Source: an uncultured cyanobacterium (GTDB lineage: Bacteria > Cyanobacteriota > Cyanobacteriia > Cyanobacteriales > CAWUOF01). From it: a DNA stretch of 64,000 nt. The DNA lies in contig CAVUSO010000001.1 in assembly GCA_963744145.1 (NCBI GenBank), positions 1,056,001 to 1,120,000 of the forward strand, given 5' to 3'. The notes below the pieces were generated by a model. It was not told the DNA's origin, made no database searches, and saw only the letters and a program-made list of their open reading frames with translations. Position numbers and translations under genes: made by a program. Positions 4,834 through 37,245 of this stretch are shown here, one piece after another (position 1 is the stretch's first letter; the number at the start of each line of letters is the position of its first letter).

Positions 4834-6690
4834 TTACTCTCTATTATTAGGTCCGTATTTCCATTGAACGAATTGCTCCAGTTCCTCCAGAGAAGGTTCC
4901 CATTTTTCAACTAAATCATTACGCACACTGGTTCTTACCCAGGGGTGTAAATCATATCGCTTTTCACCTACTATATCTCTAGTTTCTGCGATTAAATACC
5001 AACGGTTAAGTTCATTACTTGCTGTTGACCATTCAGATAAACCCCAACCTTGTGAAATTTCAGCTTGGGTAATACTAGCATTCTTTTGACTAAGAATATG
5101 TAAGAGTCGTTTAGAAGTCTGAGAAAGCGCTTTCCAAGCTGTTTCTAAGGCAAATTTATAAAAGATTTGCACTTCTCCACTTGCTTCTTCTAAAGCAGAT
5201 AGAACTGGGTCGATAGCATCTTGATTATCTACTAAACCAACAACAAAATGTAATGCTAGTGGTGCACCATAAGAAAATTCATGGATACGGTGTAATTCCT
5301 CTTCTGTTGCTTGGATAAGAGCTGGTATTTGTTTATAATTTGCTTCATCAAGTAAAAGTTTTTTTGACCAGATTTCATCTAATCCTGTGATGGGAAGCAA
5401 TTTAACAAATGTAGATTTAGCTTTGACCCGACTGGTTAAAAGCATTCGACTAGGGTTAAGTATTTTGGGGATTTTAGCTAATATATCTGAATAATCTGAT
5501 GTTTCCGCATTGTCTAAAACTATCAGTCGTTTTTTCTCTCTTAGATGTTGCTGAATCCGATTTTCTGAGTTAGAGCATTGTAGTTGAATCGCTATTTCTT
5601 CTACAAATTTATCCCAAGTAAGTGATGCCGATCGCTGACTTTTACTAATTTTACTATCTACTAACTCTGTATCTCTTGCTGTTACCCACAATACATCAGC
5701 AAAAATCTTTTGATCTAAAGCTTTTTTTGCGATCGCTTTTGCTGCTTCTGTTTTCCCATACCCAGGACTACCGCTTAAACAAAATATTGATAACTCTTCG
5801 GGAGATTTCAAATAGTTGATAATTTCGGTGACTAGATCATCTCTTCCCCATACGATTCGACATAGACGATCGGGGATAAATTTTCCTTTGATTTCTGTTT
5901 GTTTTTGAGTATCAATGTAGTTGGTGCTGTTTCCTTGCCAAAAATTAATCTCTGTTCCACTATGAAAATGTACTGGACGCTGAGGATAAGTTTGAAACTG
6001 AGGATGGTTCTGAAATTCAGTTACTACTCCACTGGCAATATCTATATTATTAATATATTTACCAATCCCATAACGTTCCGGTTTTAATACTTCTAATAAT
6101 AAATGAGTTAGCACTCCATGACCATCGACAGCATGAGCTATTTCTGAGTTACGACAAGCGGCGATGAAAGAACGGTTAACAGAAGTTTTTGCAGCTAGGT
6201 TATTGAATCTTTGTAATATCGATTCAGTCAATTGACCGCTGTGACAACAATCTAACCAAACTATCTGTTCAGGAACACTACTTTCCATCAGTTGATCTGC
6301 TAAAAAATCAAAGGGTACTCCCCATCGATCGTCTTCTGGTTTATAGTCACTTGTCCCTAAATACGCGATCGCTTTTCCATAATCATCATTAACTAAACCA
6401 TGTCCAGCAAAAAATAATAGGGCTGTTGTTTTCCCATCTTTAGCTTGAAATAACTCAAAAATCTTATCTTTGAGAGCTTTAGCTTTAACTAATCCTTTCT
6501 GATCTGTTTCAAATTTTCCCTCATCTTCTTTGTCCGGGACTATTGTCACTTCAAATTGACCATACTGTCTGAGTAAATCAGCGATCGCTTGTGCATCTAT
6601 AGCTGCGTAGTCCAGATGACAACTTTTACCATCACGATCTTTGAGGAAAGGATAGCGATTAATCCCTACTACCAATGCTTGTCGGGTCAT
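4834..6690 (-). CDS. Caspase (peptidase C14) - NB-ARC/STAND ATPase fusion with intact His-Cys dyad
   Basis: ALVVGINRY, LLFFAGHG, WLDCCHSG; Walker A GSPGYGKT, Walker B LIVLDNAE, LLTSR, GAPLAL, RYDLHPWVR (MHD-like). Confidence 0.9.
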   Translation of the reverse strand: MTRQALVVGINRYPFLKDRDGKSCHLDYAAIDAQAIADLLRQYGQFEVTIVPDKEDEGKFETDQKGLVKAKALKDKIFELFQAKDGKTTALLFFAGHGLVNDDYGKAIAYLGTSDYKPEDDRWGVPFDFLADQLMESSVPEQIVWLDCCHSGQLTESILQRFNNLAAKTSVNRSFIAACRNSEIAHAVDGHGVLTHLLLEVLKPERYGIGKYINNIDIASGVVTEFQNHPQFQTYPQRPVHFHSGTEINFWQGNSTNYIDTQKQTEIKGKFIPDRLCRIVWGRDDLVTEIINYLKSPEELSIFCLSGSPGYGKTEAAKAIAKKALDQKIFADVLWVTARDTELVDSKISKSQRSASLTWDKFVEEIAIQLQCSNSENRIQQHLREKKRLIVLDNAETSDYSDILAKIPKILNPSRMLLTSRVKAKSTFVKLLPITGLDEIWSKKLLLDEANYKQIPALIQATEEELHRIHEFSYGAPLALHFVVGLVDNQDAIDPVLSALEEASGEVQIFYKFALETAWKALSQTSKRLLHILSQKNASITQAEISQGWGLSEWSTASNELNRWYLIAETRDIVGEKRYDLHPWVRTSVRNDLVEKWEPSLEELEQFVQWKYGPNNRE

Positions 6691-6782
6691 TGACAATTCA
6701 CTACTTGTATTTTAGAATGGTTGCTAAATATTTTATATTTATTCAGCTCATCCAAGCTAGGATCTTAAACAAAACTTCAAGA
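6688..6782 (-). repeat. Copy 1 of a ~95-bp caspase-gene leader; direct repeat with 10511-10605
   Basis: 31-bp exact match TCCAAGCTAGGATCTTAAACAAAACTTCAAG (6751-6781 = 10574-10604), with similarity extending to the caspase ATG. Confidence 0.9.
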
Positions 6783-7619: not shown

Positions 7620-8021
7620 TTATGGAAATAAACCTAAACGAATCCATAATTGTCGCGCTATTAACTGTGCTGGAGAGTTCAGTTCCAGACTTCCAACTGT
7701 TACTCTACCTGTAGCTGTTATTCCGACAATTGTACCAGACTCGGTTTCCACTTGAAAATGCTCATCCCATCGATCTTGTCTTGGGTGAAAAAGGGAAACT
7801 TCCGTGTTAGAGGTAGAATCAAGTCCACTGATGTTAGTCCCTTTACGCAGGTTACAAGAGCGACAAGCTAATGCGAGGTTTGACATTTGATCGTTACCAC
7901 CTCGATAAAGTGGAAGGATATGTTCAACCTCAAAAGGGAAGTTAAATAGGATTTCAGGAGCGCGACAATATTCGCAACAATGATCAGCGCGATCGGCTAC
8001 TAGGGTATAATAAGGGTTCAT
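7620..8021 (-). CDS. HNH endonuclease (putative toxin)
   Basis: CCEYC...FEVEHILP...NLALACRSCNLRKG, LFHPRQDRWDEHF. Confidence 0.9.
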   Translation of the reverse strand: MNPYYTLVADRADHCCEYCRAPEILFNFPFEVEHILPLYRGGNDQMSNLALACRSCNLRKGTNISGLDSTSNTEVSLFHPRQDRWDEHFQVETESGTIVGITATGRVTVGSLELNSPAQLIARQLWIRLGLFP

Positions 8022-8380
8022 TAACTCAATTGTTGGATAAGAGCCGATGTCCGAAATGTAGCCGCTTTAAGTTCGGCTTCGACAAGATGTTCTAATTCTG
8101 CTTGTTGTTTGGCAGAAATAGTTTGTCCGCGATCGCGTGCTGCACGCCATAGGTTCATTAATTCTGATAATTGTTTTTGTTGTTCGGCAGTAAAAAATTC
8201 GTCAGGGTTAAAGCTTTGAATAATTAGTAATACTTTGAAGTTTGTTTCGCCTAACAAAGTAATCAAACCATCTAAAGCTTGACCTGCGGTTGTACCAACA
8301 GACTGTTGATCGCCAGCAATAGCGCGATAAGATTTCTCACCGTTGGGATTAAATACAGGTAGGATAGCAACTGTAGTCAT
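8021..8380 (-). CDS. Small protein translationally coupled to the HNH gene (putative antitoxin)
   Basis: TAATG stop/start overlap with the HNH gene; PDEFFTAEQQKQLSELM...ELEHLVEAEL. Confidence 0.7.
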   Translation of the reverse strand: MTTVAILPVFNPNGEKSYRAIAGDQQSVGTTAGQALDGLITLLGETNFKVLLIIQSFNPDEFFTAEQQKQLSELMNLWRAARDRGQTISAKQQAELEHLVEAELKAATFRTSALIQQLS

Positions 8381-8715: not shown

Positions 8716-8940
8716 GTGAATATGACTGAGTTACTTGAACGGGCGATCGCGCAATTGAAAACCTTACCAGCTAGTGAACAGGACGCGATCGCTACGATCA
8801 TACTGGAAGAACTTGAAGCAGAAATACAATGGGATGCAGCATTTGCGCGATCGCCAGATATTCTTGCCAAACTGGCAGCTAAAGCAATGACTGAGTACCA
8901 TGCTGGACAAACCCAAGAGTTAGATCCAGAAACACTGTGA
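8716..8940 (+). CDS. Type II antitoxin-like protein
   Basis: MTELLERAIAQLKTLPASEQDAIA...WDAAFARS; GTGA overlap with the downstream toxin. Confidence 0.8.
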   Translation: MNMTELLERAIAQLKTLPASEQDAIATIILEELEAEIQWDAAFARSPDILAKLAAKAMTEYHAGQTQELDPETL

Positions 8941-9206
8941 AATCACAAACAACCAGATCTTTTCGTCAAACATTTGCCGAACTACCAAAGCAAGTGCAAG
9001 ATCAAACACGCGAAGCTTATCGACAATTCAAACGAGATCCTAATTATCCTAGTCTTCACTTCAAAAAGGTACATCCAGAATTATCAATTTATTCGGCTCG
9101 AATTAATAAAAACTATCGAGCCGTTGGACAGTTAGATGGAGATATCGTCATTTGGTTTTGGGTTGGTTCACATACAGATTATGAGCGGTTACTCTCTCAG
9201 TTCTAA
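8937..9206 (+). CDS. RelE/ParE-like type II toxin
   Basis: FAELPKQVQ...YPSLHFKKV...YSARINKNYRAVG...WFWVGSHTDYERLL. Confidence 0.85.
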   Translation: MKSQTTRSFRQTFAELPKQVQDQTREAYRQFKRDPNYPSLHFKKVHPELSIYSARINKNYRAVGQLDGDIVIWFWVGSHTDYERLLSQF

Positions 9207-9283
9207 TTTCACCAACTGATAAGTACGCTAAGAATTAAATAGAAGCGATCGCATTTATGAAACACAGGGAGTGCGATCGCCCC

Positions 9284-9832
9284 TCAAACCCTAACTAGCT
9301 CTCCATTTAAAATATTCAAACAAGCTGGACTTTCATCCATAAAATTGAGGTATAATTTTTCTCCTTCAATAGTAGTCTGAGTAATAATATCTTTGCCGTA
9401 CCTCCAGATTTCTTTACCTGACTCAGTGATGGCAGTTATATCAACTTCTTGAACAATTAACACAATTCCCTGATTTTTGAGGGGTAAGAAATAATAAAAC
9501 AGGGAACTTAATTTGATTCTAAAAGCGATTTGTCGATTTTTTATATTTACTCCTACTACTTCCTGGTTATAGCCGAACATAATAAGATCCAACTCTGGCT
9601 GCATTAATAAATTCGGTTTTAACCCATACCCTTGTGAACAAATGCCAATGCCAAAATAATGCAGTCCTGATGTTTGGGGACGCACAATGGCTGCATAAAA
9701 TTTCTGTTCATAATCATCATCTTCATTGAGTAATATGCTTCCTAAATCACATTGATTTAAAGAGTAAATTAGCTCTTTTTGTGTTGACCATTCTTGCAAT
9801 TCTATCACGTTTTCAGTAAAAGTAATAAACAT
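9284..9832 (-). CDS. Hypothetical beta-rich protein, putative immunity protein for the upstream toxin tip
   Basis: Starts 1 bp after the toxin-like ORF stop; acidic and beta-rich; no catalytic motif recognised. Confidence 0.55.
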   Translation of the reverse strand: MFITFTENVIELQEWSTQKELIYSLNQCDLGSILLNEDDDYEQKFYAAIVRPQTSGLHYFGIGICSQGYGLKPNLLMQPELDLIMFGYNQEVVGVNIKNRQIAFRIKLSSLFYYFLPLKNQGIVLIVQEVDITAITESGKEIWRYGKDIITQTTIEGEKLYLNFMDESPACLNILNGELVRV

Positions 9833-9833
9833 T

Positions 9834-10241
9834 TTAGTTGACTCCAGATTTTAAGAAAATTGTTATAAGTTTATTATTTTGCCAAACTGTCTCCATTCTA
9901 AGAGCGCCTCTTTTTCCCATCAAGAGAGAATCTTTGACAATTCGACCATCTGGTTGCGTTCTAATGATGTTGGTCGAGTCATAGAAAGCAGTTTCGATAT
10001 GGCGTACCATGTAATCCCGGTTTTCTATTGTATCATAAATTCCAATCGATTCTAGGAGTCGGAGCATTTCTCTGCTTCTGATCATGTTATCTGGACTACC
10101 AGTTGCTTGTCCAAAAAGATAAGAAAGCTTTTGAACAATCTTAGCTTGACGATGGGCTTGACGGATATCGGTAATAATAAAAGCGAGAATAATAAATGTT
10201 AGATCGGCAAGCAGAAGAGCTAGTTGAAATTTTGCTTTCAA
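9834..10241 (-). CDS. Polymorphic-toxin C-terminal-like domain (putative RNase), probably an orphan/truncated tip
   Basis: KLSYLFGQATG..NMIRS..L.SIGIYDT..SLLMG..GAL..ETVW..LIT resembles Rhs/CdiA C-terminal toxin tips; weak TTG start. Confidence 0.5.
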   Translation of the reverse strand: MKAKFQLALLLADLTFIILAFIITDIRQAHRQAKIVQKLSYLFGQATGSPDNMIRSREMLRLLESIGIYDTIENRDYMVRHIETAFYDSTNIIRTQPDGRIVKDSLLMGKRGALRMETVWQNNKLITIFLKSGVN

Positions 10242-10290
10242 TGTTGTTATAGTTATCTCTCCATACTTATGTATTCCTGGTCTATTGTAG

Positions 10291-10513
10291 ATTATAGCGT
10301 GATCGCTATTCTTAACTTTCTGGTATTAACGTTATCTCCCATTGGATCGATTTTAAACCTATCAGCGTTACTGACAGGTAATCTTGTCACTTTGAAGTTA
10401 CCGTGAGTTTCGAGGAGATGAGCGATCGCCTCCGCATCAGAAGCCGGTCTTTCCAAATGTTCTTTGATAACAGGATATCGGTTAATCTCAACTACTAATG
10501 CTTCTCACTTCAT
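10291..10513 (-). pseudogene. Truncated caspase N-terminus
   Basis: MK*EALVVEINRYPVIKEHLERPASDAEAIAHLLETHGNFKVTRLP...AITL*; homologous to the starts at 6690 and 18041. Confidence 0.85.
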
Positions 10514-10605
10514 TGACTATTCACTACTTGTATTTTAGAGTATTTGCTGACTATTCTATATTCATTCAACTCCTCCAAGCTAGGATCTTAAACAAAACTT
10601 CAAGG
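10511..10605 (-). repeat. Copy 2 of the caspase-gene leader; overlaps the stop codon of 10600-11385
   Basis: Direct repeat of 6688-6782. Confidence 0.9.
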
Positions 10606-11385
10606 ATTATTAGTTTGTGAAGGGTTATTCGCATCGTCCCACAGTTGTTTAATTCCTTTGTACAAGCCATCATAATATTTTTGGTCTTGATAGCGGGTAA
10701 TAAAAATTACAATGCTTTCATGGGTTGGCTTAAACTCCGATATTAAAGGAGAAATCCTTGCCCATCCTTTAGGTGTTTCTGGATCGACGATCCAAATATT
10801 GCAAGTGGGAAAAGCATCATAAAGAGCATAATGTAACTGTTGCGGGTAAGTTTTTTTTAATTGATCTAGCTGGTCAGTAAAATTCTTTACATCTTGCTTT
10901 AAATCATTCAGCGATCGCTTCGTAAACTCTGCATAACTTTCAGCCATTTTACTATCAGGATCGAAAATCAAAAATTTTATTTTTAACTTGGAATTATTTT
11001 TCAAAGCTTCGTCAATATATACGCTCAATCCTTGACGTACAGCAGTAGAATAGGTTGCGGCTTTAATATAAATAGTATCTTGAACCAAATCCCAAACTTT
11101 ATTAATATCTTTATTAGCAGGTACTTCTCTCCTTCTTAAATATACTGATTCCACTGGTAAACTAATCGCTTTTTGCAATTTAACAATCACCCGTTCAATT
11201 AATTCTTCTTGCAAAAAATTTTTATACAGAGTTTCCACAACTCCGATTGCTAAGGTTGCTGACCCAGCATTGCTCAAGAAATCTTTTGCATATTGATAGC
11301 TACTCGGTATTAATGCTGAAATTAGCATCATCACCAAGCCTACTAAAATAATGACAGCACCTAAGAATTTATGAACAGTTTTCAT
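10600..11385 (-). CDS. Two-TM protein with C-terminal DUF5919/inactive PLD-fold-like domain
   Basis: Two N-terminal hydrophobic helices; DTIYIKA, KIKFLIFDPDS, YDAFPTCNIWIVD, QLWDDA pattern. Confidence 0.6.
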   Translation of the reverse strand: MKTVHKFLGAVIILVGLVMMLISALIPSSYQYAKDFLSNAGSATLAIGVVETLYKNFLQEELIERVIVKLQKAISLPVESVYLRRREVPANKDINKVWDLVQDTIYIKAATYSTAVRQGLSVYIDEALKNNSKLKIKFLIFDPDSKMAESYAEFTKRSLNDLKQDVKNFTDQLDQLKKTYPQQLHYALYDAFPTCNIWIVDPETPKGWARISPLISEFKPTHESIVIFITRYQDQKYYDGLYKGIKQLWDDANNPSQTNNP

Positions 11386-11517
11386 CGGTTTTTATACCAA
11401 TAACTCACGAAATTGCACTTAATTAGTGAGGCAGCGGTGGGTTTATTATGCTGATCTGCCTTTACCAACATTGATCGGTAAACCTGCCCCCACCAACAGA
11501 TCAATTACTGAACCATA

Positions 11518-13014
11518 TTAACCTAATATTATTTTATCATTCACTCCTCGGCATAAAAATTCTCGTACCCTAGCAATAACTTCTGCTTCAGTGCAACGAC
11601 TAGGACGGTAAAATATTGAAATAATAGGATCTTGCAATGTATTGGTACTCTCCATATTTTTGAAATTTAATTCTGATTGATTAGCCTCTTTCTTGGTTAT
11701 TAGTGCTTTCACTGTTTCACCCGGAAGTTTATGCAACCAGACTCCTACCTCTGGATCATAAGTCTCTTCACCACATAGCCATTCAAACATTTTATCTAGT
11801 AAATAAGCATTCATCCGCTTGATGGTAAAGTCACCCCTAGCTTGCAATTGGTAGGGATAAAGACCAAACGTAATAATTTTTAAATCTTTGCCTTTTTCAC
11901 CATAGCTTTTTTCTAAATCACGATCTTTATCCTCTTTCAAATCCTTCAAATACTTGGCAACGGCAAATTGATTTTCTATTTTGGTTTCTGTTTTGGTTCC
12001 TATTTTGGGTTCTATTTTTGTTTCTATTTTGGGTAACTTTTTTTTGAGCTTACCCCATTGTATGCTTAAGTTTTCCAAGGAGCGAGAGCGATCGCTCACT
12101 CCACATATATCAGGCAAAACTTTCATGTATAGTTTCTTATACTCATTATCATGTTTCAGCAAATCATCATTATTCTCAATGAGTTCGTTAATATGAATCA
12201 GAATAAGATGCCTGCCGATCGCCCGACACTGAGGCATACTAGAATTAGTCAATAACCAGCGTACTTCTGTGAGTTTATTTAATTGCTTATCTTCACATTT
12301 TTGCTCGATCCAATCTCGTTTATCCGTAGTATCTGGCAGTTGGGTAGTTGTGCCTTGAATCATATCTGATAGAATGCGTTTAAAGTTGATCAGAATTTCT
12401 TTATACTCGGAGTCAAACACAAGCTTTTGCATACCGTCTTTGACAAAATTAGTGCTGACTAACTCAAGCAATTGCTCATTCATACAAGGTGAGAGCATCT
12501 TGGTGTCTTTACCAATTTTGACATCAACAATGCAATGAGTACAACCGATCGCGATCCGTTTAGATAGAATAGAAGCATAAACAAACGGAAAATTAGTCAT
12601 CAGGTTCGTAGCACGACGAGCATCCATCAACACTTTATCAACGGGTGCTAAAGCGTCTGTTGGCTGACAAATTACGCCTTGTTCTTTTTTACATTCCTGC
12701 ACGATCGCTTCTGCATCGGTAGGAAAAGATAAACCACCACTTTCTAAAATATCCACTGTGCCACAGCTACCACCTTTAGAGGGAAGCTTGGTAACGTACA
12801 TCTTTTTATCTCCCTTTTTGTTATTTTCGCTTGCAGCTACCATCAGCCAGAGATAGCCAAAAATAGGAGTGATATTGGCAACGCATCCTGTTGATGCTAC
12901 ATCCCATCGCTGGGCAATATTTTCGCTTTCCCAAAGTTTTGACAATTGATCAGCTAGTCCCGATCGAGCCATTTCTTTAGTAAATTCATTGAGATTGAGT
13001 TTAATTTCGCTCAT
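11518..13014 (-). CDS. Divergent thymidine/pyrimidine-nucleoside phosphorylase (NP-II, glycosyltransferase family 3) homolog
   Basis: DVASTGCVANIT, GTVDILES, LAPVDK...ARR, ASILSKRIAIG, VDVKIG, LLTN..PQCRAIG and DPEVGVWLHKLPGETV align in order with DeoA/Pdp motifs. Confidence 0.8.
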   Translation of the reverse strand: MSEIKLNLNEFTKEMARSGLADQLSKLWESENIAQRWDVASTGCVANITPIFGYLWLMVAASENNKKGDKKMYVTKLPSKGGSCGTVDILESGGLSFPTDAEAIVQECKKEQGVICQPTDALAPVDKVLMDARRATNLMTNFPFVYASILSKRIAIGCTHCIVDVKIGKDTKMLSPCMNEQLLELVSTNFVKDGMQKLVFDSEYKEILINFKRILSDMIQGTTTQLPDTTDKRDWIEQKCEDKQLNKLTEVRWLLTNSSMPQCRAIGRHLILIHINELIENNDDLLKHDNEYKKLYMKVLPDICGVSDRSRSLENLSIQWGKLKKKLPKIETKIEPKIGTKTETKIENQFAVAKYLKDLKEDKDRDLEKSYGEKGKDLKIITFGLYPYQLQARGDFTIKRMNAYLLDKMFEWLCGEETYDPEVGVWLHKLPGETVKALITKKEANQSELNFKNMESTNTLQDPIISIFYRPSRCTEAEVIARVREFLCRGVNDKIILG

Positions 13015-15782
13015 TTTTTTTCTTCCTGATGTTGAATAATTTTGTCTGGATGGTTTTGCAGTTGGATTAAAATACCGTCAACTTCTGGACGCAGATTTGT
13101 TCCCCGTGCCCCAAGGATAATCTTGTCAAAAACGTCCTTATATGCTTCTTCAGTTTTTGACTGATCGGGAACTTTGGGCATAACTTTTTCCAAATGCCAT
13201 GCTGAAGCTAGAAAAGCAAAAATCGAAGCCCAAGGATCGATATCTGGAAACTTGGAGGAATTGAGGCAATAGGCAGACAGCGCCCATCGGAGTTCTACCA
13301 TATCTAGCTTGCAGGTTTTGAGAGCAAATCGGCGGATCGTCGCGATCGCTTTGAGGGCGTTCCCGATCGGCAAAATCAATGCTTGAGACGCGGCGAGATC
13401 GGGCTTGATTAACTGAGCCACAAAAAATTCTGCACCATTTCCCTCAAATTCCACTGCCCGAAGCGCTAAATCAAGCAGGTGATAATGAAGCTTGTCTTGG
13501 CTACCTTGCGGCAATAGATTAGCCAGATTGACCAAAGAGGGAGTCAAGTGATGATTCCAGATTTCTACTTCCAGTTTGGCGAAGTCATAAGCCACCATGC
13601 CCCGATCCTGCGATCGCTCGAAGTCAATTAACCAACCCACCTGTTCCTGTTCGCTACCAAAGAGTATATTTTGCAGGTTAAAGTCGCCGTGAATAGTTCC
13701 TATATGAGCAGATAGGGTGTAGTGATAGGGAATTTTGGAGCGATCGCCAAAATAATCAAACGGGTTGGGCAATTTGTCTTTAATTCCTGGTAATTTTTCC
13801 AGCAGTTGATTAATTTCCTCACCCTTTGTTGAGAGGGCATCCTTTGTTAAAATGACCTTCTCTGCCAGGGCTACACTGAAAATCTTGTCTTGCATCTTCT
13901 TAACTTCTTGGCTGCGATCGTCCAGACACACCAGCACCTCCACCGGCATTCCCGGACGAATCCAAGTCGCACCAAACCGTTGACAAATATCTCTACCTCT
14001 GCCCCGCAGCTTGATGCGAACTCCCAGATCGGGATGGGCTAACATAACAGAACCTTCACCAAACTCCCCTTCTTGGGCGCTAACTTCTAACAACTGCCAG
14101 CCACAGAGCAAGATTTTCTCAGCATTTTGAAACTTTTGGCGATCGCCCCAAGAGGAAATATCTTCTTTGCCGGTTTTAATATCTTCTTTGTCGGTTTTCT
14201 TTTGCCTTTCCAGTTCAAACGATGCCAGAGTCCAAGCAGATTTTTCTTTGTACCCCTGAGCAATATAGGATTGCAGAGGCTTCACCTTACGCTCTTTGCC
14301 TTCGCCAGATAGATTAGCACTGTCGCTGGGGATCTCTAAATCGTCAGCAGAAACAAATTCTAAGGGAATCAGAACACCCGATAGAGGTGGTAGCGTGTTA
14401 CCTAGCCACTGCCACAAAGGAAGTTTTTCCGTTGAGAGTTGAGATTGGGCTATTCCAGAGTGAGAAAGGGGTTTGAGGACTTTTTCGAGGGTATTTTGAA
14501 TGCGACTGACGAGGAAATCTCCGCCTGTCGGTTGGTTGAGTTGTTGCTTCATCAAGTCATCCAGGGGACGCAAGCGCTGGTAGTCTTCTGGGAAACCAGC
14601 CAGAGAATACATCAGTGCGCCGGTGGGAATTTGCTCGCTGTTGCTGGGACTGACAACGGGTTTGCGGATGATGGCGGCGGCGTAGCTGTTGAGTCGGGGC
14701 TGGATCACTTGTTGATAAGCAAAATATTCTCTCTGGATGCTCAACCATGAACCAATTTTCATAAACCGGGTAGCCTGGTTTTTGGGCTTTAAGAAAAAAG
14801 TGGCTTGTGCGGCTGACTTGCCAGAGGTGAGCAGTTTGACGAGTTCGACTTCATCTCCACTAGGAAATAAGGTAGCAATCAGTGTCAAGAGGGAATCTCC
14901 CTTCGGGCTTTTATCCAGAGGTGGGGTCAAGCCAAGTTGTTTGAAGAATTTTTTGCCAAGGGGAGTGCTGATGTCAATTTTGAACTGGTTAGTAAAGGGA
15001 TTATCTTGATATGCGCTGTATAAGGTTTTAGCCGTTTCTTCTAAGTGATGTTCCAAACTGAGGTAGTGGAGAGGCTCGATCTGTTTTTCAACTTCATTAG
15101 CATTCTGTTGGGTAGAGCTATCATTATCATCTCTATGATGGGTTTGGTTTTTGTAGAAGCACCAAGATGCTCCATAGGATAAGCCTTTCTCTAGGTATTT
15201 GAGTTCTTTAATACCTGTAAATAAGAAAGAGGGAATTTCTGGATATTTCTGAGAAAGAATGTGGATGGCACGGTATCCCATGATTTTCCATTTTTCCTCT
15301 TCCTCTTCCTTTGGAATAAAATCAGTCAGGGTGGGTTTCCACTCAAAATCGACTATAAATGCCGCAATATGAGGGCGATCGCGTTCTACCTGGTCAAAGG
15401 TTATTGTAGAGGCAATTAATTCGTAACTAGGCTCTGTATTATTGCTAGGAATCCAAAGCGGTGGTGCTTTGACATCAAAGACTAATGATAAGCTGTTTAG
15501 GTTTAGACAAAATCCTTTTAAAATCTCTTCCAGATCACTATCACGATCATCACACTTGATTTTTTTGAGACAGTAATATTTGCCAATTTTTTTATCATCT
15601 GTCTTAAAATCTCGGACTATATATATATTTTTTTCGATGTCGAAAGTAACGTAGTTATTATAGTCGTCAAAAACATAAATAACTGGTTTGAGACCACCCA
15701 GGGTAATATAAAAGCTCCGGTATAGGCTCTTTTGGATAGCTTTGATATCATCTGGAATTAAATGGGACAATAGCGATGTCAT
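13011..15782 (-). CDS. Receiver (REC) domain fused to an APH/choline-kinase-like phosphotransferase (TCAD9-like)
   Basis: REC: IYVFDD, FIVDFEW, PEIPSFLFTG, GASWCFYK; kinase: SGKSAA, FMKIG, REY, IHGDFNLQNIL, WLIDFE, YDFAKLE. Confidence 0.8.
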   Translation of the reverse strand: MTSLLSHLIPDDIKAIQKSLYRSFYITLGGLKPVIYVFDDYNNYVTFDIEKNIYIVRDFKTDDKKIGKYYCLKKIKCDDRDSDLEEILKGFCLNLNSLSLVFDVKAPPLWIPSNNTEPSYELIASTITFDQVERDRPHIAAFIVDFEWKPTLTDFIPKEEEEEKWKIMGYRAIHILSQKYPEIPSFLFTGIKELKYLEKGLSYGASWCFYKNQTHHRDDNDSSTQQNANEVEKQIEPLHYLSLEHHLEETAKTLYSAYQDNPFTNQFKIDISTPLGKKFFKQLGLTPPLDKSPKGDSLLTLIATLFPSGDEVELVKLLTSGKSAAQATFFLKPKNQATRFMKIGSWLSIQREYFAYQQVIQPRLNSYAAAIIRKPVVSPSNSEQIPTGALMYSLAGFPEDYQRLRPLDDLMKQQLNQPTGGDFLVSRIQNTLEKVLKPLSHSGIAQSQLSTEKLPLWQWLGNTLPPLSGVLIPLEFVSADDLEIPSDSANLSGEGKERKVKPLQSYIAQGYKEKSAWTLASFELERQKKTDKEDIKTGKEDISSWGDRQKFQNAEKILLCGWQLLEVSAQEGEFGEGSVMLAHPDLGVRIKLRGRGRDICQRFGATWIRPGMPVEVLVCLDDRSQEVKKMQDKIFSVALAEKVILTKDALSTKGEEINQLLEKLPGIKDKLPNPFDYFGDRSKIPYHYTLSAHIGTIHGDFNLQNILFGSEQEQVGWLIDFERSQDRGMVAYDFAKLEVEIWNHHLTPSLVNLANLLPQGSQDKLHYHLLDLALRAVEFEGNGAEFFVAQLIKPDLAASQALILPIGNALKAIATIRRFALKTCKLDMVELRWALSAYCLNSSKFPDIDPWASIFAFLASAWHLEKVMPKVPDQSKTEEAYKDVFDKIILGARGTNLRPEVDGILIQLQNHPDKIIQHQEEKK

Positions 15783-15801
15783 GTTGATAAATTCACCTTA
15801 A

Positions 15802-16374
15802 TCAAAACTTATCTTTATTTTCGTGCAAGTATTTAAATGTATCAAACATTAGTTGTTTTTCTTCTTTTCTGTTTGTTTTACCACTAATTGTTAAATCTTC
15901 AAATTGTTTCCAATTAAAATCAGGATCGGTTGGATTTCTTGAACAACACATATCAGGCTTTTCATTAGGTTTATCTCCAGTTGCATAAGCAATGACATCT
16001 TCAATATCATGAATAGTTACTTCAAATTCATCTAGCTCAGTTTTGCGAAAGATTCGCTCTCCCAAATCCCTTCTTTCTGGTTTTCCCGGGCTGGCAAACC
16101 AAAATATTTTGTCAGCTTGAATTTTACTATCTGTCCATATTTCTTCATTACTAGAGTGAATAAATACCACTAACATTTTCGGTAATTGTTTTATTTCATT
16201 CTCATCCAGATTCCCTTCAGTTTTAGGTTTATGTTTCTTGATTTTACCTATATCTGAAACCACATAAACTTCAGTAAATTTACTAGGCAAAATAATTTCA
16301 CTCCATTTCTTCCATCTGTCGATAACGCTATCAACCAAGCAGAATGTTAGTATATTTGTGTTTGCCGATGTCAT
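15802..16374 (-). CDS. Hypothetical protein, probable degenerate stand-alone receiver domain
   Basis: Strand pattern FCLVD / LVVFIH / IFWFASPG / IFRK fits a REC fold with Asp replaced by His; operonic spacing 17-19 bp. Confidence 0.5.
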   Translation of the reverse strand: MTSANTNILTFCLVDSVIDRWKKWSEIILPSKFTEVYVVSDIGKIKKHKPKTEGNLDENEIKQLPKMLVVFIHSSNEEIWTDSKIQADKIFWFASPGKPERRDLGERIFRKTELDEFEVTIHDIEDVIAYATGDKPNEKPDMCCSRNPTDPDFNWKQFEDLTISGKTNRKEEKQLMFDTFKYLHENKDKF

Positions 16375-16391
16375 AAGTCAATTTTCTCCTT

Positions 16392-18041
16392 TTACTTTTC
16401 TTTTTCATTAATAAAAGAAATAGCAACTAATCTAAGTGTATCCTCTTCCATGTAAATTGAACTAGGGCTAAAAAAACCTTTGTCGCTAATCAACAAATTC
16501 ATCCACAAGCTTATTATTGCTTCTCTTGTATTACCAACAGGTTTAGGAGTATAAATATTTTTCGCCAGAGCGGATACTTTTTTAGCTAAACTTTCCGTTT
16601 CTCTTGGGGCAGGCTCATCAGCAGGCCATTTAAAGACAATGTTTAATGCAGTTCCCTTGTACTGGAAGAACGCTTTGCTTACCATAGATGTTTCTGCTGA
16701 ATCCCGTTGCTGAAATAAATGAAAAAACAATTGACATAAAGCGATCGCTGATGACTGAGCTGTGTCTACATCTTGCCGATGAAATAAAGGTGATTTTGCT
16801 GCACTGAGATCTTGCCAGTCAACCCTTTGAGTCAGAAATTGTATATCCATATCTTTCCAAGCTAGACGGTGTGCCATAAGTGCTAATAAATAAGCTGCTC
16901 CAACTGAAATATGGCGACTTCTTTTAGGATTATCTTGGCCTAAAAAATAACTACCACAAAGATGCTTAAGGGATTCATGTAAGTTCTTAACAGAATTTTC
17001 ATTCCACCAATGCTCAGGAAAAGTAAATCCAAGAGCTTTTTGAATTTCTTCTTTATATTTATCAACCTCATATTTAATGTCAGCGTTAGTCTGACTTTCT
17101 TGAAAATGTTTAGCGATTTTTTGAGATTCATGTTCCAATATAAAGTCTTTCTTAACATCCGATGCTGAAAACCAGTTAGCTGTTGAATTCCATAGTTGTT
17201 TCAGTGTTATTTCTATAGAACTAGAATATGAGTAGATTGAATCAGGAACACCTCCATTTTTTGTAAGAATAATAGGATGATCACTATTTCTTACCATTGG
17301 GCGTTGAGGCTTATCAAAATTTTTTTCTACTATAAAATTTTCATCCGGTCTGTCTTCAATAAACTCTTTAAGTATATGGCTAGTAATCCAATCACGAGAC
17401 TTTGATAATTTAGGGTTAAGACCTTCGATAAGAGCTTTGACTAGGGGGCTACGATCATCTGCATCAGCATAGAGTGGCTCTTCTACGTTGGATGAGACAA
17501 TCCAGCAGCGATCGCGCCCTGGTTTATCTTCATCATCTTCAGGAAATTCCAATAGTTCTCCACTATGGCCACAAACTAGCCAAACAACTTGTTGGGGAAC
17601 AGGACTTTTTTTCAGCAATCCACGCAACCATTGGAGAGAAACGCCCCACGCTGGCTTACCTTTGCTATTTTCGCTTTTAGTATCGCTAGTTGCTAGAAAT
17701 CCTTCAAAGTTACCTGACTGGTTTGTTCGGCGAAGACCGATTCCGGTAAAAAATAGCAGGGCTGTATCAGGTATACTTTCTTTGGCTGCGAATAAATCTG
17801 TAATGGCAGTTACCAAATCTTTTTGCCTTACCAATCCATTAGGATCGAATTGCCATTCATCGAGTCCAAACGGCAGTCGCTTGACTTCAAAGCCGCCATA
17901 TATTTCCAAGAGACGGGCGATCGCTTCTGCATCTCTAACAGGCGTAGTTAATTTCGGAGTAAGGCCATCCTTATCCTTGAGCTGGGGATACTTATTTATA
18001 CCGACAACTAATGCTTGTCTCCTCATGTCTGCTACATCCAT
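16392..18041 (-). CDS. Pseudo-caspase (dyad mutated) fused to an uncharacterised C-terminal domain, possibly a degenerate histidine-kinase/GHKL fold
   Basis: ALVVGINKY...DAEAIARLL; FTGIG replaces FAGHG and LVCGHSG replaces LDCCHSG; ~280-aa unknown C-terminus. Confidence 0.8.
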   Translation of the reverse strand: MDVADMRRQALVVGINKYPQLKDKDGLTPKLTTPVRDAEAIARLLEIYGGFEVKRLPFGLDEWQFDPNGLVRQKDLVTAITDLFAAKESIPDTALLFFTGIGLRRTNQSGNFEGFLATSDTKSENSKGKPAWGVSLQWLRGLLKKSPVPQQVVWLVCGHSGELLEFPEDDEDKPGRDRCWIVSSNVEEPLYADADDRSPLVKALIEGLNPKLSKSRDWITSHILKEFIEDRPDENFIVEKNFDKPQRPMVRNSDHPIILTKNGGVPDSIYSYSSSIEITLKQLWNSTANWFSASDVKKDFILEHESQKIAKHFQESQTNADIKYEVDKYKEEIQKALGFTFPEHWWNENSVKNLHESLKHLCGSYFLGQDNPKRSRHISVGAAYLLALMAHRLAWKDMDIQFLTQRVDWQDLSAAKSPLFHRQDVDTAQSSAIALCQLFFHLFQQRDSAETSMVSKAFFQYKGTALNIVFKWPADEPAPRETESLAKKVSALAKNIYTPKPVGNTREAIISLWMNLLISDKGFFSPSSIYMEEDTLRLVAISFINEKEK

Positions 18042-18082
18042 TACAATTACAATTGGTATGGTATCTCAACATTAACACGATT

Positions 18083-18568
18083 ATGTCTCATTATGAATCT
18101 GAAGCCTATCCATCTGCTACATCGACTCCTGCTGCCACCAGTACACTATTAGCTCTGTTACTGGCTCTGAAAAACCTAGAATCCCATCTCAACAAAAATG
18201 AACTAGCACAACTCTATGAAATAGGCGAACAACTAAAACTTGACCCAGATGATTGGGAGTTTATCTATGATGGGTTAAAAAGCATTGTTGAAAGCAACAC
18301 TTCTCTCAAGGAAGCTTTTCAATCTGCATACGCTCGCGTCCTAGATGACGATGAGAGTGTTATTAGGAAAGATGTGATCTCTTCATTGGAGATTCGCGGT
18401 TATGTCGATAATGAACAAGATTTGGTCAGTAGAGCAGTTATTTATATTACAACTAGGTTACTTAAAAGTGACGATCTGCAAACCACAGCCAGAAACCTAA
18501 ACCTACCTTTTTCGATTACGGATACGGATAGGGACTTCAGAACAATCTCCATAATAGAACGTAGATAA
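18083..18568 (+). CDS. Caspase/CHAT-associated small helical protein, paralog 1
   Basis: TLLALLLALKNLE...EIGEQLKLDPDDWEFI shared with 18759-19199; divergent from a caspase start. Confidence 0.75.
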   Translation: MSHYESEAYPSATSTPAATSTLLALLLALKNLESHLNKNELAQLYEIGEQLKLDPDDWEFIYDGLKSIVESNTSLKEAFQSAYARVLDDDESVIRKDVISSLEIRGYVDNEQDLVSRAVIYITTRLLKSDDLQTTARNLNLPFSITDTDRDFRTISIIERR

Positions 18569-18581
18569 GGAGAATCGGCTG

Positions 18582-18693
18582 ATTCAGCATCCTGTACCGC
18601 ACTCATTAAATGTTGAGCCTCACTCATCGGCGTTTTCTTAAAAAGGTAGCAATTGATACCAACCACTAATGCTTGTCGCTTTATCTCACCCAT
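18582..18693 (-). pseudogene. Truncated caspase N-terminus
   Basis: MGEIKRQALVVGINCYLFKK...HLMSAVQDAE, after which homology ends. Confidence 0.8.
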
Positions 18694-18758
18694 ATCGACT
18701 TATATCATCCATATAGACTAAAATTGACCTAACTCATTTATGATACCACCATTAGTTT

Positions 18759-19199
18759 ATGGACACAATCTTTCGCGACAAAACATTGCTAGCCCTCTTA
18801 TTAGCTTTGAGAAACCTGGAAGACCCACTTAGCCAATTTCAACAGGCCCAGCTACATGAGGTAGGTGAACAACTAAAGCTTGACCCAGATGATTGGGAGT
18901 TTATTGAAGAGGGGTTGCTGGCTGTTGTTACTAGCAATACATTGCTCAATAAAGAGTTTGAAACTGCCAAAGCTAAATTAGATTCTGTGGATAATATCCA
19001 AGAACTCCTACCTACTGACAACGATATAGATGAGAAGATTTTTCTCAAGATAGAGAGACGTGGGAATAACACCGAACAAGAGGAAAATAGGCCACCGATT
19101 GTAAAAATAACTTGTAAGTTTTTAAAAGATGATGATCTAGCCAAAATAATCAAAAAATCAAGTTGGATTGAGCGAGTTTTGAACAGCCTAAATTATTAA
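18759..19199 (+). CDS. Caspase/CHAT-associated small helical protein, paralog 2
   Basis: TLLALLLALRNLE...EVGEQLKLDPDDWEFI; 49 bp upstream of the CHAT gene and divergent from the caspase remnant. Confidence 0.8.
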   Translation: MDTIFRDKTLLALLLALRNLEDPLSQFQQAQLHEVGEQLKLDPDDWEFIEEGLLAVVTSNTLLNKEFETAKAKLDSVDNIQELLPTDNDIDEKIFLKIERRGNNTEQEENRPPIVKITCKFLKDDDLAKIIKKSSWIERVLNSLNY

Positions 19200-19248: not shown

Positions 19249-22200
19249 ATGGTTAAACTTGTCTTAAATTTCAGACAGGGAAGTTTTGAAAAGGGATTTG
19301 ATGCGACCCTGGAAATAAGCGATCGCGATCGCATTTCCACAATACAGGGTCAACTACCACCACAGCCCACCCTACCCAAAATCTATGAAGATTGGCAAAA
19401 TATCTTTAATACATACGATTTAGGAGAGGAAGAAATTGTCAAAGAAAAAGCAAAACCTCTGCGCGAGGATTTGAACACCTGGCTAAATTCGGAATTGTTT
19501 AGTCCGATTAAATCTAAATTAGCAGAAATTTTCACATCATCTGAAGAAGTTCGCTTGTTAGTTCAAGCCGAAAACTATCAACTCTGGCGACTTCCTTGGG
19601 AGCAATGGGACTTTTTCGCTAATTATCCCCAACTTGAAATAGCATTGAGTTCCCCAGTATCTAAATCTATCAAAAGATGTCCCCTGAATCAACCAAAAAC
19701 TAAAATTAGAATTTTATGTATTCAATGTAACACTAAGAAAATTGATACGGAAATTGATATCAAAGCCTTAAAAACTTTTTTCCAAGATCAGGCAGATATA
19801 AAATATGTTAGCAAGCCTAGTAAGAAAGAACTGTCTCAATATTTGAGAAATAAAAAAGGTTGGGATATGATCTTTTTTGCGGGTCATTCTAGCACGGATA
19901 GCCAGCAAAGAGGTATCCTTGAAATTAACGATGAAGAAAATTTGACAATTCCTGAATTAAAGTATGCTTTAAGAGCAGCGATCGCTCTGGGCTTAAAATT
20001 AGCAATTTTCAATTCCTGTGATGGTTTAGGATTAGCCAGAAACTTAGCTGACTTGCAAATCCCTAGCGTAGTTGTTATGCGAGAACCAGTTCCCGATCAA
20101 GTAGCTCAAGTATTTGTCGAAGAATTTCTTAAACAATTTGCCAACAATGAATCATTATATGCTTCAGTGCGACAAGCACGGGAAAGTTTAAAAACCCTAG
20201 AAAATCAGTATCCTTGTGCTAGCTGGTTACCTGTAATTTGTCAAAATCCAGCCGAAGATGCGATCGCTTATGAGGGGTTACTAAATGGATTAAATACCGA
20301 TACAAACTGGGAAGGAGCTTGTCGTACTCTACTCACTCTGGATGCGATTAAACGGCTCGAATCAAATATGTTGACAAATAAAAAGGGTATAGAAATTGAC
20401 GATATTTATGTTCCCCCTAACTTAGATTTAGTCAAACGATTTAAGAAAAAAGATCCAAAGGAGTTATCCCAGGAAGAACAAGAACAGCAAAAAAGAGAAA
20501 ATCAGTTTCTCGATATTTATCAAGAGGATAATTTTTTCAAACAAGTAATCGAGTCGGGAAGAAGTATTTACAGCCAAGGGCGCAGATTAGCAATTATTGG
20601 CGAAGCAGGGATCGGCAAAAGCCTATTTTTACAACGGCTCGGACGAATGGATTGTCTGGGAGTCAAACACTACCCATCAAGTTGTGATCTGGGTATCTTT
20701 AGCTGACTTGAAAACAGCGCAAAGTCTGGAAGACTATCTCCAGCAAAATTGGCTTGAACGCGCCAAACAACAAGTAAAGATTCCCGCAAATAATCAAGAA
20801 GATTTAAGATTGCTATTTGCATCAAGACGAGTATTCTTGCTGTTAGATGGAGCCGATGAAATGCCTGTCCGCATTGGTAATCCTCTCGAAGTAATTGTCA
20901 GACAGCTCGCTACTTCTGAGTGGATTTCTCAAGCAAGGATTTTACTAACTTGTCGCGTCAATGTCTGGGAAGCCAACCAAAATATTTTGCAAAATTTCGA
21001 TGTTTACCGTCACTTAGATTTTAGCGATCGCGCTCAATATGGTCAACCGATTAACCAAGTAGAAGCCTTTATTTCTGGTTGGTTTAATGGTAGTAAACAA
21101 CAAAGAAAAATTGGTCTAAATTTGCGCCAAGAGTTAGAGCAAGAAGGCAAGCAAAAAATTAAAGATTTGACCAAAAATCCCTTGCGGTTATCATTGCTAT
21201 GTTTAGTGTGGGAAGAGCAGGGGAGGTTGCCAGATACTAAAACAGAACTTTATCAGCAATTTGTCGAGGAAATTTATAAATGGAAGCAACAGCAATTGAA
21301 GCTAGATAAATCCAAAATAGAAAATTTAAACAAAAAATTAGCAGAGTTAGCAAAACAAACGTTAGATCAAAAAAACATATTACCTCGACAAAAATTGTCA
21401 GACAATCTACCTCTAGCAGAAATAGAACTACTGTCTCCATTTCGGATTTCTCATGTTTTAGCAAGGTTAACTCTTGGTAAGGATTTTGACTTAGCACTAA
21501 AGTTGGGTTGGTTGAATCAGGTAGGAGTCTCGCCAAACAAAACAGAGGAACCCATCTATGCCTTTTTGCATCCGAGTTTCCAGGAATATTTTGCGGCACA
21601 AGCTATTGCTTTTGATCAGTGGAATTATTTTTTAGACAGCGGCAACGAGATTCATCGAGTTTTTGAGCAGAAGTGGCGGGAAGTAATTTTGTTTTGGTTT
21701 GGACGACCTAGTGAGAAAAATATTGATAATAAATACTGGAAAGAAAGTTTTATCACAAGGATTTGGAAATATAACGATTTTTGTAAGGGATTTTATGCAT
21801 TTAAAGCACGGCTTTTAACGGCGGAAGCTTTGGGAGAATTTAGAGATTGTAGTGATGAAATAGCAGAAAAAATAATAGCTGAAGTCGTTAAATTTAGCAT
21901 TTGCTATTATATTGATGAAAATGATTTTTCCTTACCTGAACAGGCAATAAGAGAGAGAGGTTATGCAGCACTATTGCAAATAAATAGTAGCAAATTTAAA
22001 GATTATTTAGTCAAACTTCTAAGTCGTCTTCCGCTAGATCACATAGTTAGTCGTTCTGAGATTGCTGATGTTCTAGCACAATTAGATCCTGGTAATCAAG
22101 AAGCTATTAATACTCATCTTGATTTGATCAAAACTGTTAAGACTGGAGATTATAACTTTGCCTGTGGGCTTATTCGCTATAGTTCAATGAAAAAAATCCA

Positions 22201-25053: not shown

Positions 25054-25291
25054 ATTTACCTGCTCATTGCCTAGCAAAAACATAAATTGGCTGCCACTAG
25101 CTAATCATTATAGCCTAATTGACCTTTATGACTCTTTTTTTCCAAATTTTGTCAATTTATCTGATCCAGATCGACTAAAATTGATTTAGCTCATTTATAA
25201 TACCACAATAACTAGGACATACTTGAGCAAAAAAAACTGTGTTGCTTGTATTTGTAGTAATTATTCTGACTAATCACCGATGGTTAAACCG

Positions 25292-37208: not shown

Positions 37209-37245
37209 GGTTTTTTGGTAATTAAGTAATTTAGTCAAAGGAACT

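Follow-up and report, generated by a model that had tools for sequence, protein, structure and literature searches.

The window analysed here is a stretch of 64,000 nucleotides (nt) from an uncultured cyanobacterium (contig CAVUSO010000001.1, positions 1,056,001 to 1,120,000), and the gene under study encodes P0001, a protein related to thymidine phosphorylase. P0001 belongs to the thymidine/pyrimidine-nucleoside phosphorylase fold (NP-II) as a complete, highly divergent member; its phosphate/sugar pocket is remodelled, its base pocket is kept, and the protein ends in a PYNP_C-like domain. It is not a housekeeping enzyme, since it falls below the curated family cut-offs, belongs to a separate clade and has no salvage genes around it in the window. 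Its gene is the last of a tightly packed operon on the minus strand, which runs in the order P0005 (a putative pseudo-caspase), P0004, P0002 (a kinase) and P0001. Taken together, the remodelled pocket, the pairing with a kinase and the location in an immune/cell-suicide island of a filamentous cyanobacterium point to a form of nucleoside-based conflict chemistry not described before, and away from salvage.

Fold, active site and phylogeny of P0001

11518..13014, minus strand: P0001, thymidine-phosphorylase-like (TP-like, NP-II fold) protein of 498 amino acids (aa), intact open reading frame (ORF) with an ATG start
11973..12032, no strand assigned: 12-nt tandem repeat in five copies, in frame within P0001, encoding a Lys/Glu/Thr-rich insert at residues ~329-348

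All seven NCBIfam models matched by P0001 are NP-II phosphorylase models, the best being TIGR02644 (E = 1.3e-15), and the protein lies under every curated cut-off (57.1 bits against 409 for TIGR02644, 54 against 269 for NF004490, 37.7 against 571 for TIGR02643, and 39.3 against 559 for NF004747). A sequence search of the PDB matched residues 80-186 only, to pyrimidine-nucleoside phosphorylase (PyNP) 7m7k (6e-8) and Escherichia coli thymidine phosphorylase (TP) 1azy (1.2e-7), and a profile of 25 family members reached 1brw at 1.5e-16. Comparison of the family profile with a profile of 18 canonical enzymes using hhalign gave a probability of 99.8 (E = 1.6e-28), with family positions 42-479 aligned on canonical positions 60-403, which corresponds to the alpha/beta domain through the PYNP_C-type end. 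The AF2 model of P0001 (pLDDT 86.8, pTM 0.91) was compared with the PDB using Foldseek, and the top match was PyNP 1brw (E = 6.9e-13, TM 0.53/0.60), with 4ga4, 5ep8 and 1tpt also retrieved. The helical, alpha/beta and PYNP_C-type domains of the NP-II fold are thus represented in P0001 according to the predicted structure, Foldseek and hhalign. TrpD is not the closest match, as the best TrpD structure in Foldseek had an E-value of 4.2e-5 (TM 0.34) against 6.9e-13 for PyNP, and no trpD model was among the NCBIfam matches. With the Pfam model Glycos_transf_3 alone P0001 was not significant (E = 0.11; 12.6 bits, gathering score 27) and would therefore escape detection by that model; fused relatives that match it score 16.6-26.3 bits.

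A preliminary description of this DNA, made from its letters alone, had named P0001 a thymidine-phosphorylase homolog. That P0001 is a family-3 (NP-II) homolog is upheld by NCBIfam, the PDB search, hhalign and AF2/Foldseek, with the qualification that family-3 profile matches are significant for NCBIfam and in the profile-profile comparison but not for Pfam Glycos_transf_3. The same description held the N-terminal helical domain to be shortened, and this is correct as to length: the canonical helical N-terminus has ~59 residues before the first aligned helix and that of the P0001 family ~41 (profile-profile alignment). The P0001 ORF lacks the greater part of the latter, ~30 residues of the domain being located at the end of the upstream kinase ORF. 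The alpha/beta domain of the family contains a ~55-residue insert relative to canonical enzymes. The insert encoded by the tandem repeat of P0001 is lineage-specific, is modelled as a loop with a pLDDT of 66-70, and is missing from most rows of an alignment of 25 sequences (A1).

Active-site motifs were mapped by aligning P0001 with the annotated E. coli deoA product (CP061270.1; gene row deoC-deoA-deoB). In TP and PyNP, phosphate is bound by K84, S86, S95, S113, and T123 and the base by R171, S186, and K190, and the active site is lined by H85, Y168, and F210. P0001 carries V39 in place of K84, A40 for H85, C44 for G89, P50 for S95, P78 for S113, M130 for Y168, and K172 for F210; in addition, D92 is changed to N and G114 to S, and the Gly-rich loop lacks two residues. 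The canonical D-K-H-S-T-G-G loop with K84/H85, together with S95 and S113, is accordingly not present (V39, A40, P50, P78). The base-binding residues R171 (R133), S186 (S148), and K190 (K152) are retained together with T123 (T86), as are S86 (S41), T87 (T42), G88, D125, D164, D202, and K204. In A1, residues S148, D164, K166, and G168 of P0001 are invariant and S41, T42, K76, R133, K152, and K172 are nearly so. The motif order along DeoA, the conserved S-T-G, Arg171, Ser186, and Lys190, and the change of DKHSTGG to DVASTGC with loss of Lys84/His85 had all been read from the sequence earlier; each was found again in the deoA alignment, and the rewiring of the active site now extends to the S95, S113, G114, Y168, and F210 positions. 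Compared with PyNP/TP (1brw, 1azy/1tpt, E. coli DeoA), then, P0001 shares the three-part fold, the PYNP_C-like end and the S-T-G loop, and differs in its replaced K84, H85, D92, S95, G114, Y168, and F210, its Gly-rich loop that is shorter by two residues, its lack of a salvage context, its coupling to a kinase, and its scores below curated cut-offs.

The extent of these changes was determined in a profile search of 1.84 billion representatives; the search detected 2151 relatives with E<=1e-3, of which 38 had E<=1e-30. For 165 stored relatives the N-terminal half was aligned, and the motif columns were filled in 153 of them; K-H was present in 55/153 and absent in 98/153. Among the 55 K-H rows, the S95 position holds S or T in 54, the G114 position G in 53, the Y168 position Y in 54, and the F210 position F in 49, and in the 98 rows lacking K-H the same positions hold P in 88, S or T in 85, M in 80, and K in 82, respectively. 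T123 is kept in 55/55 rows with K-H and 87/98 without, R171 in 55/55 and 95/98, S186 in 55/55 and 97/98, and K190 in 55/55 and 91/98. Because conservation and co-variation are also seen among the replacement residues, the pattern is that of a re-specified site and not of decay or relaxed selection. Judged from the alignments, the loss of K84/H85 is a clade-wide family signature, and the five co-varying substitutions with retention of T123, R171, S186, and K190 across 98 representatives favour a working site with changed specificity.

The signature was also compared with database classification. Non-canonical stand-alone members were under the curated NCBIfam cut-offs with one borderline exception (P0076), and two proteins without K-H that keep G114 and Y168 (P0094 and P0097) were above an NCBIfam cut-off. 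Four canonical proteins used as controls all pass, with P0104, P0110, and P0102 above the TIGR02644 cut-off and P0106 as the fourth. A word-index search with P0075, a non-canonical stand-alone protein, gave 15 matches, two of which carry a name, the automatic 'pyrimidine-nucleoside phosphorylase', and none of which is characterised.

A phylogenetic tree was constructed from 89 rows out of 180 stored proteins, with fragments and most canonical matches left out. P0001 was placed within a clade of 30 rows (SH-aLRT 99), with stand-alone forms scattered among kinase-fused ones. The sister of this clade is a second, wholly kinase-fused clade, and the 39 rows of both are joined with a support of 99. 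The 20 canonical rows form a single clade elsewhere in the tree (support 100), so that a clustering of P0001 with housekeeping Pdp, which the preliminary description had named as an outcome that would contradict it, was not observed.

Archaeal AMP phosphorylase (4ga4-4ga6, TIGR03327) has the fold in common with P0001 and was the second-best Foldseek match (E = 4.2e-12); it is a precedent for an NP-II enzyme that takes a nucleotide instead of a nucleoside. P0001 scores 26 bits against 535 with TIGR03327, and the family profile matches AMP phosphorylase at 1.1e-4 as compared with 1.5e-16 for PyNP. A Pfam scan was performed on 47 ORFs of the window, three antisense or overlapping ORFs being outside the scan. 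No deoB, deoC, cdd, ribose-1,5-bisphosphate isomerase or type III RuBisCO family was found among these 47 ORFs, in agreement with the earlier remark that salvage genes are not nearby.

Pairing with a TCAD9 kinase

13011..15782, minus strand: P0002, REC-like plus TCAD9 kinase, 923 aa; Pfam TCAD9 1.7e-51
13050..13142, minus strand: C-terminal tail of P0002 (residues 881-911), equivalent to the first TP-like N-terminal helices
15802..16374, minus strand: P0004, split-off N-terminal module of the kinase protein, 190 aa

The longer homologs of P0001 (1034-1700 aa) contain PF19974 (TCAD9) in 20/20 cases, of which 12/12 re-scanned were confirmed, and 18 further TCAD9 plus TP-like proteins were identified among 41 representatives scanned. 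In total, 38 kinase/TP-like fusions were confirmed, and the K-H motif is absent in 38/38. At E<=1e-30, 25/38 representatives are longer than 1000 aa and have the match at their C-terminal end. The functional tie between P0001 and the upstream kinase that had been suspected at the outset is thus supported by the 38 confirmed fusions. The gene order caspase-like, TCAD9 kinase, TP-like is shared by the window and 3/3 Oscillatoria loci (PCC 10802, O. princeps, and SIO1A7), and in a locus from a gammaproteobacterial metagenome-assembled genome (L003) the kinase and TP-like parts are one ORF. Upstream of the fused gene, positions 4-4992 of L003 encode an RtcR/PspF-type sigma-54 AAA+ protein, matched by the PADLOC model CARF_AAA_HTH over its AAA+ part only, and a 1041-aa protein without an assigned family; this partner set differs from the cyanobacterial pseudo-caspase.

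The boundary between the two parts is variable. The kinase tail of the Oscillatoria sp. PCC 10802 locus (L001, residues 1068-1100) matches the N-terminal extension of the TP-like protein of L002 (E = 2e-4), and in an alignment of the fusions (A2) residues 881-911 of P0002 lie inside a continuous segment that reaches the W-D-x-A-S-T-G motif. The split between kinase and TP-like protein is located before the tail segment in L002 and L004 and after it in the window and L001. These two split points and the interspersed tree indicate that the pair was split at least twice, at different points, from what would be an ancestral fusion. P0004 is a further piece of the same protein: over residues 1-143 it matches positions 2-147 of the 1102-aa kinase of L001 (35% identity, E = 1e-19), and it also aligns to the L002 and L004 kinases. 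The P0004 and P0002 ORFs are separated by 19 nt and are in different frames, for which natural fission and a frameshift are both possible. P0004 had no Pfam or PADLOC match and no usable ESM Atlas match.

The stop codon of P0002 overlaps the start codon of P0001 (ATGA). This overlap, at 13011-13021 (minus strand), lies within an A8 run, and the heptamer A_AAA_AAA stands in the kinase frame right before TGA with the P0001 ATG in the -1 frame, so that a -1 slip would re-fuse the two proteins. A programmed -1 frameshift was considered on this basis and rejected; at the L001 junction an A-run is missing and the ORFs are 8 nt apart, and the heptamer, not being conserved, is probably incidental. Complex prediction for P0001 with residues 690-923 of P0002 returned no answer (score 0.01), which counts neither for nor against binding.

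In P0002, a REC-like receiver (~30-215) is connected through a helical linker to a TCAD9 protein-kinase-like domain (311-844) that contains a beta-rich insert; inside the TCAD9 region, Pfam APH and Kdo were each matched at 3.4e-5. The kinase residues K342 (beta3 Lys), H698, D700, and N705 (H-G-D..N loop), and D720 (metal-binding) are invariant in 37/37 aligned sequences, and E352 is kept in 36/37. With these catalytic residues intact the kinase looks active. Receiver-type residues are present in the N-terminal part of the kinases (D-D in 27/37, D145 in 27/37, T/S in 25/37, and K in 28/37). The AF2 model of P0002 (pLDDT 84.3, pTM 0.88) was matched by Foldseek to maltokinase, CheY-type receivers, APH(3')-Ia, and 5-methylthioribose kinase, all weakly (best E = 1.7e-3). 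The model is consistent with a small-molecule-type protein-kinase-like fold plus a receiver, and the structural matches support nothing finer. The beta-rich insert (residues ~545-625, encoded at ~13908-14150, minus strand) has H583, P584, G587, R589, and G611 nearly invariant across 37 sequences; it has no assigned family and could be a substrate-binding module. A 21-nt in-frame tandem repeat of two copies is located in the P0002 gene at 14157-14198.

Other domains accompany the family in single proteins. P0160, one of the 38 fusions, combines TP-like, Csx1/CARF and TCAD9 parts, and the CARF domain suggests that the kinase-NP-II pair is an output module. Non-canonical TP-like domains occur with a SMODS-associated NUDIX in P0118 (2655 aa), with NUDIX in P0085, and with a mad8/HerA-like ATPase in P0078, and P0048 carries TCAD9, TP-like and EEP (Exo_endo_phos) nuclease/phosphatase domains.

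Caspase-fold partner and genomic surroundings

16392..18041, minus strand: P0005, caspase-fold protein, first gene of the operon, 549 aa; Pfam Peptidase_C14 2.6e-7
L001 4315-6660, L002 5116-6702, and L004 4737-6260: orthologs of P0005
10600..11385, minus strand: P0003, 261 aa with an N-terminal membrane segment, 132 nt downstream of P0001; no family match

The caspase domains of P0005 and its three orthologs were matched by Pfam at 2.6e-7 to 2.6e-17. All four loci also conserve a C-terminal domain of ~290 aa, for which no family match was obtained. For comparison, five nearby caspases with NB-ARC, NACHT or WD40 fusions were included in an alignment of P0005 and its orthologs. In the operon-linked caspase domains, the catalytic His is replaced by I, Q or R in 5/5 and the Cys by G or S in 4/5, the N-terminal caspase copy in L001 being the one that retains Cys; the five neighbouring caspase-STAND/WD40 proteins keep the G-H-G and C-C-[H/R]-S-G motifs. 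The operon-linked caspase is therefore predicted to be catalytically dead. The preliminary description contained neither this nor the clade-wide signature, the ancestral fusion or the N-terminal piece in the kinase ORF. An active-type caspase-STAND/WD40 gene is located within a few kb in L001, L002, and L004, and in the window the caspase-NB-ARC gene at 4834-6696 is ~5 kb downstream of the last gene of the operon and 11.3 kb from the P0005 gene. P0005 may act as an adaptor or decoy for neighbouring caspase-STAND sensors; such genes are common in these islands. Against the NCBIfam model NF047832 ('caspase, EACC1-associated type') P0005 scored 43.5 bits, with a cut-off of 140, and in PADLOC it matched the generic caspase model alone (1.5e-7). 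A PDB sequence search with its caspase domain gave 0 matches, and no usable match was found for its C-terminal domain in ESM Atlas.

The backbone of the window is cyanobacterial chromosome, as judged from GUN4, two-component systems, prfB, and a sigma-factor gene. Within it, a conflict island extends over ~3.8-36 kb and contains a caspase-NB-ARC gene with TPR, HNH, ParE-like, CHAT, NACHT, and HEAT genes, and the gene of a 1194-aa WD40 protein, which agrees with the conflict setting first proposed for P0001, here a caspase/CHAT-STAND island. A promoter and terminator scan of 9000-19000 gave 28 and 9 candidates, respectively, compared with 27.4 and 6.9 in shuffled sequences; these counts are equal to those of the shuffles. 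P0003 was considered as an effector of the module and discarded, as no counterpart is found downstream of the TP-like gene in L001-L004 and the gap is 132 nt.

Several other features of the window were recorded. Three overlapping ORFs at 19249-24134 (plus strand), encoding CHAT (485 aa), NACHT (755 aa), and HEAT+NCC-H (440 aa) proteins, mirror a single 1725-aa CHAT-NACHT-HEAT-NCC-H protein at 25280-30457 (plus strand) and look like a broken or split paralog. At 8716-9206 (plus strand), a ParE-like toxin ORF follows an overlapping 74-aa ORF, probably as a toxin-antitoxin pair, and at 7620-8380 (minus strand) an HNH endonuclease gene is accompanied by a 119-aa partner without an assigned family. 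An SxtJ-like small protein (Pfam 1.1e-14) adjoins a carbamoyltransferase (N- and C-terminal domains, E = 3.9e-124) at 36798-39186 (minus strand); this pair is reminiscent of a part of saxitoxin-type clusters. The release-factor ORF at 61006-61830 (plus strand) is aligned to the PCRF profile from position 71 onwards, which would be expected of prfB with its usual programmed +1 frameshift, the N-terminal part then lying upstream in another frame.

Proposed module, alternative explanations and significance

Nucleoside phosphorylases of the unrelated NP-I (PNP-type) fold are known as nucleosidase defence effectors that deplete ATP, as in Detocs. The concept of a nucleoside-phosphorylase-fold enzyme that is under receiver control and acts on nucleotides would be shared with the present module; the two differ in fold (NP-I and NP-II), in the lack of a PADLOC match here, and in the kinase, which is an obligatory partner in the present family.

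In Kaur et al. 2020 (PMC7159879), APH-like kinases, receivers, and PNPase-superfamily domains are reported from related conflict systems. With the TCAD9-bearing 'ternary' nucleoside triphosphate (NTP)-dependent systems as presented there, the window shares the TCAD9 domain alone (in P0002), and the nucleoside phosphorylases mentioned there belong to the purine PNPase (NP-I) superfamily. Neither the operon nor the 47 window ORFs gave a Pfam match to vWA, MoxR, VMAP or EACC1 genes, so membership of the vWA-MoxR systems, which combine a MoxR AAA+ and a vWA gene with a VMAP or iSTAND component, is not indicated. The EACC1-caspase two-gene system (PMC7159879), in which a 5' EACC1 gene with a single TM segment precedes an active caspase-fused protein, is likewise not represented: the catalytic His and Cys are replaced, and the upstream gene is divergent and gave no match. 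The word 'thymidine' was not found in the main-text matches or organism-list supplements of that paper. In Altae-Tran et al. 2023 (PMC10910872), the legend of Figure 6C lists TCAD9 among CARF/SAVED-linked proteins. P0160, with Csx1/CARF, TCAD9, and TP-like parts, resembles the CARF-TCAD9 proteins near type III CRISPR loci of that paper, whereas P0002 of the window has a REC-like domain instead of CARF and no CRISPR locus was seen; the main text of PMC10910872 does not contain 'phosphorylase'. The TCAD9 passages of two relevant papers name no phosphorylase. No paper linking thymidine phosphorylase with anti-phage defence or conflict systems was found in the searchable literature, nor, among the matches listed, a relevant one linking it with CARF, nor was a description of the TP-like/TCAD9 pairing, which the domain-architecture tables of PMC7159879 might list.

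On this evidence, a REC/CARF-controlled module of two enzymes, a kinase and an NP-II protein, with a pyrimidine nucleoside or nucleotide as its substrate and a role in conflict, is put forward as a reading whose chances we regard as even. The module, ancestrally fused and here encoded by three ORFs (P0004, P0002, and P0001), would be co-transcribed behind a dead caspase-fold protein. An upstream trigger might be read via the pseudo-caspase, perhaps by docking to nearby active caspase-STAND sensors, or might consist of phosphorylation or a ligand at the REC-like domain, whose place is taken by CARF in one relative. The trigger would then activate the kinase-NP-II pair. The NP-II domain would bind a uracil- or thymine-type base through the equivalents of R171, S186, and K190, and an N-glycosidic bond would be made or broken at the re-tooled phosphate/sugar site, in which K84, H85, and S95 are lost, K is gained at the F210 position, and M at the Y168 position. 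The kinase would phosphorylate the same small molecule before or after the NP-II step, and the output may be depletion of the nucleoside/nucleotide pool, or an unusual nucleoside or sugar-phosphate that serves as toxin or signal. A more specific version, offered tentatively and with the balance tilted against it, is that this is a new immune effector chemistry: enzymes activated by REC, CARF or a pseudo-caspase would act sequentially on a pyrimidine nucleoside/nucleotide or on free pentose plus base, and either destroy the nucleotide pool or make a non-canonical nucleoside or sugar-bisphosphate as a replication poison or second messenger.

Several observations weigh against the two-enzyme module. 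P0013 and P0024 (the latter being the L004 protein) have lost T123, R171, and K190 as well and are still full length, which suggests that catalysis may not be essential everywhere. With K84, H85, and S95 changed, and S113 in P0001 also, classical phosphorolysis may be lost, given the roles attributed to these residues. The additional EEP domain of P0048 allows the pair to be regulatory and not an effector. Foldseek returned 0 matches of the P0002 model at E<=0.001. The tree was a quick IQ-TREE run (LG+G4, midpoint root) without a TrpD or AMP-phosphorylase outgroup, and gene context was available from four loci besides the window, one of which ends at a contig edge. PADLOC, applied to the operon and 16 relatives, had no match for the TP-like or kinase parts, and PADLOC-DB 2.0 assigned 0 families to P0001-P0004 and the fusions P0031, P0048, P0090, and P0098. 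In plasmid and phage collections the family was not found, the only hits being partial matches of canonical deoA type (13 and 3 records), so that nothing ties the family directly to phage defence.

Some of these points are also expected if the TP-like domain is a ligand-sensing pseudoenzyme that binds a pyrimidine nucleoside, nucleotide or base and gates the kinase, which would itself be the output and act on a protein or small molecule. The loss of the K84/H85/S95 equivalents, the full-length P0013 and P0024 that also lack T123/R171/K190, the kinase catalytic residues as the most invariant part of the fusion, and the effector-like EEP domain of P0048, which fits a regulatory role, all agree with such a sensor. 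The conserved and co-varying replacements (P95 in 88/98, M168 in 80/98, K210 in 82/98), however, form the pattern of a re-specified site, the equivalents of T123, D125, D164, R171, S186, K190, D202, and K204 are retained, and P0160 already has a dedicated sensor (CARF) beside its TP-like and kinase parts. A sensor of this kind is on balance unlikely, although it must be given appreciable weight. The retained base-binding residues would also suit a biosynthetic pair unrelated to conflict, in which a sugar and ATP yield a sugar-1-phosphate that is then joined to a base to form a specialised nucleoside (a secondary metabolite or modified precursor). The kinase model has maltokinase and 5-methylthioribose kinase, both of which phosphorylate an anomeric hydroxyl, among its best structural matches, and nucleoside phosphorylases use sugar-1-phosphate as co-substrate. 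Such a pair is nevertheless improbable: the E-values from Foldseek are poor (best 1.7e-3), with APH(3') scoring similarly, no biosynthetic family lies near the operon among the 47 ORFs scanned, the family is instead associated with a pseudo-caspase, STAND NTPases, CARF, SMODS-associated NUDIX, and a mad8/HerA-like ATPase, and the REC-like input domain suggests switch-like control.

That P0001 might be an ordinary pyrimidine-nucleoside salvage enzyme (Pdp/DeoA) of merely divergent appearance would accord with its seven NCBIfam matches, all to NP-II phosphorylase models, and with PyNP as the best PDB fold match. We consider this very improbable, since P0001 reaches 57 and 54 bits where the respective cut-offs are 409 and 269, the K-H motif is absent, the clade is apart from the 20 canonical rows, no deo or cdd genes are in the window, and the protein is always fused to or adjoining a TCAD9 kinase; the view of the preliminary description that P0001 is not a salvage enzyme is accordingly shared here.

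Attack on nucleotide pools and signalling by nucleotide derivatives are central to immunity in prokaryotes, and the enzymes known for these tasks belong to other folds (NP-I/PNP, deaminases, TIR, cyclases, and NUDIX). In the present module it is the NP-II fold that shows a five-position re-tooling of the phosphate/sugar pocket and is hard-wired to a small-molecule-type kinase under receiver/CARF control. The pseudo-caspase beside active caspase-STAND genes would be a bacterial parallel to the decoy/adaptor caspases of animals. If the immune-effector reading is true, the signature x-[P/A]-S-T-G, P95, S/T114, M168, and K210 defines a conflict-dedicated NP-II branch that has been repeatedly recruited by CARF, NUDIX, HerA-like, and TCAD9 modules. 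If active, the module would provide a new reaction for immune biochemistry, a substrate-specificity code for NP-II enzymes of relevance to nucleoside-analogue biocatalysis, and a function for the TCAD9 kinase family.

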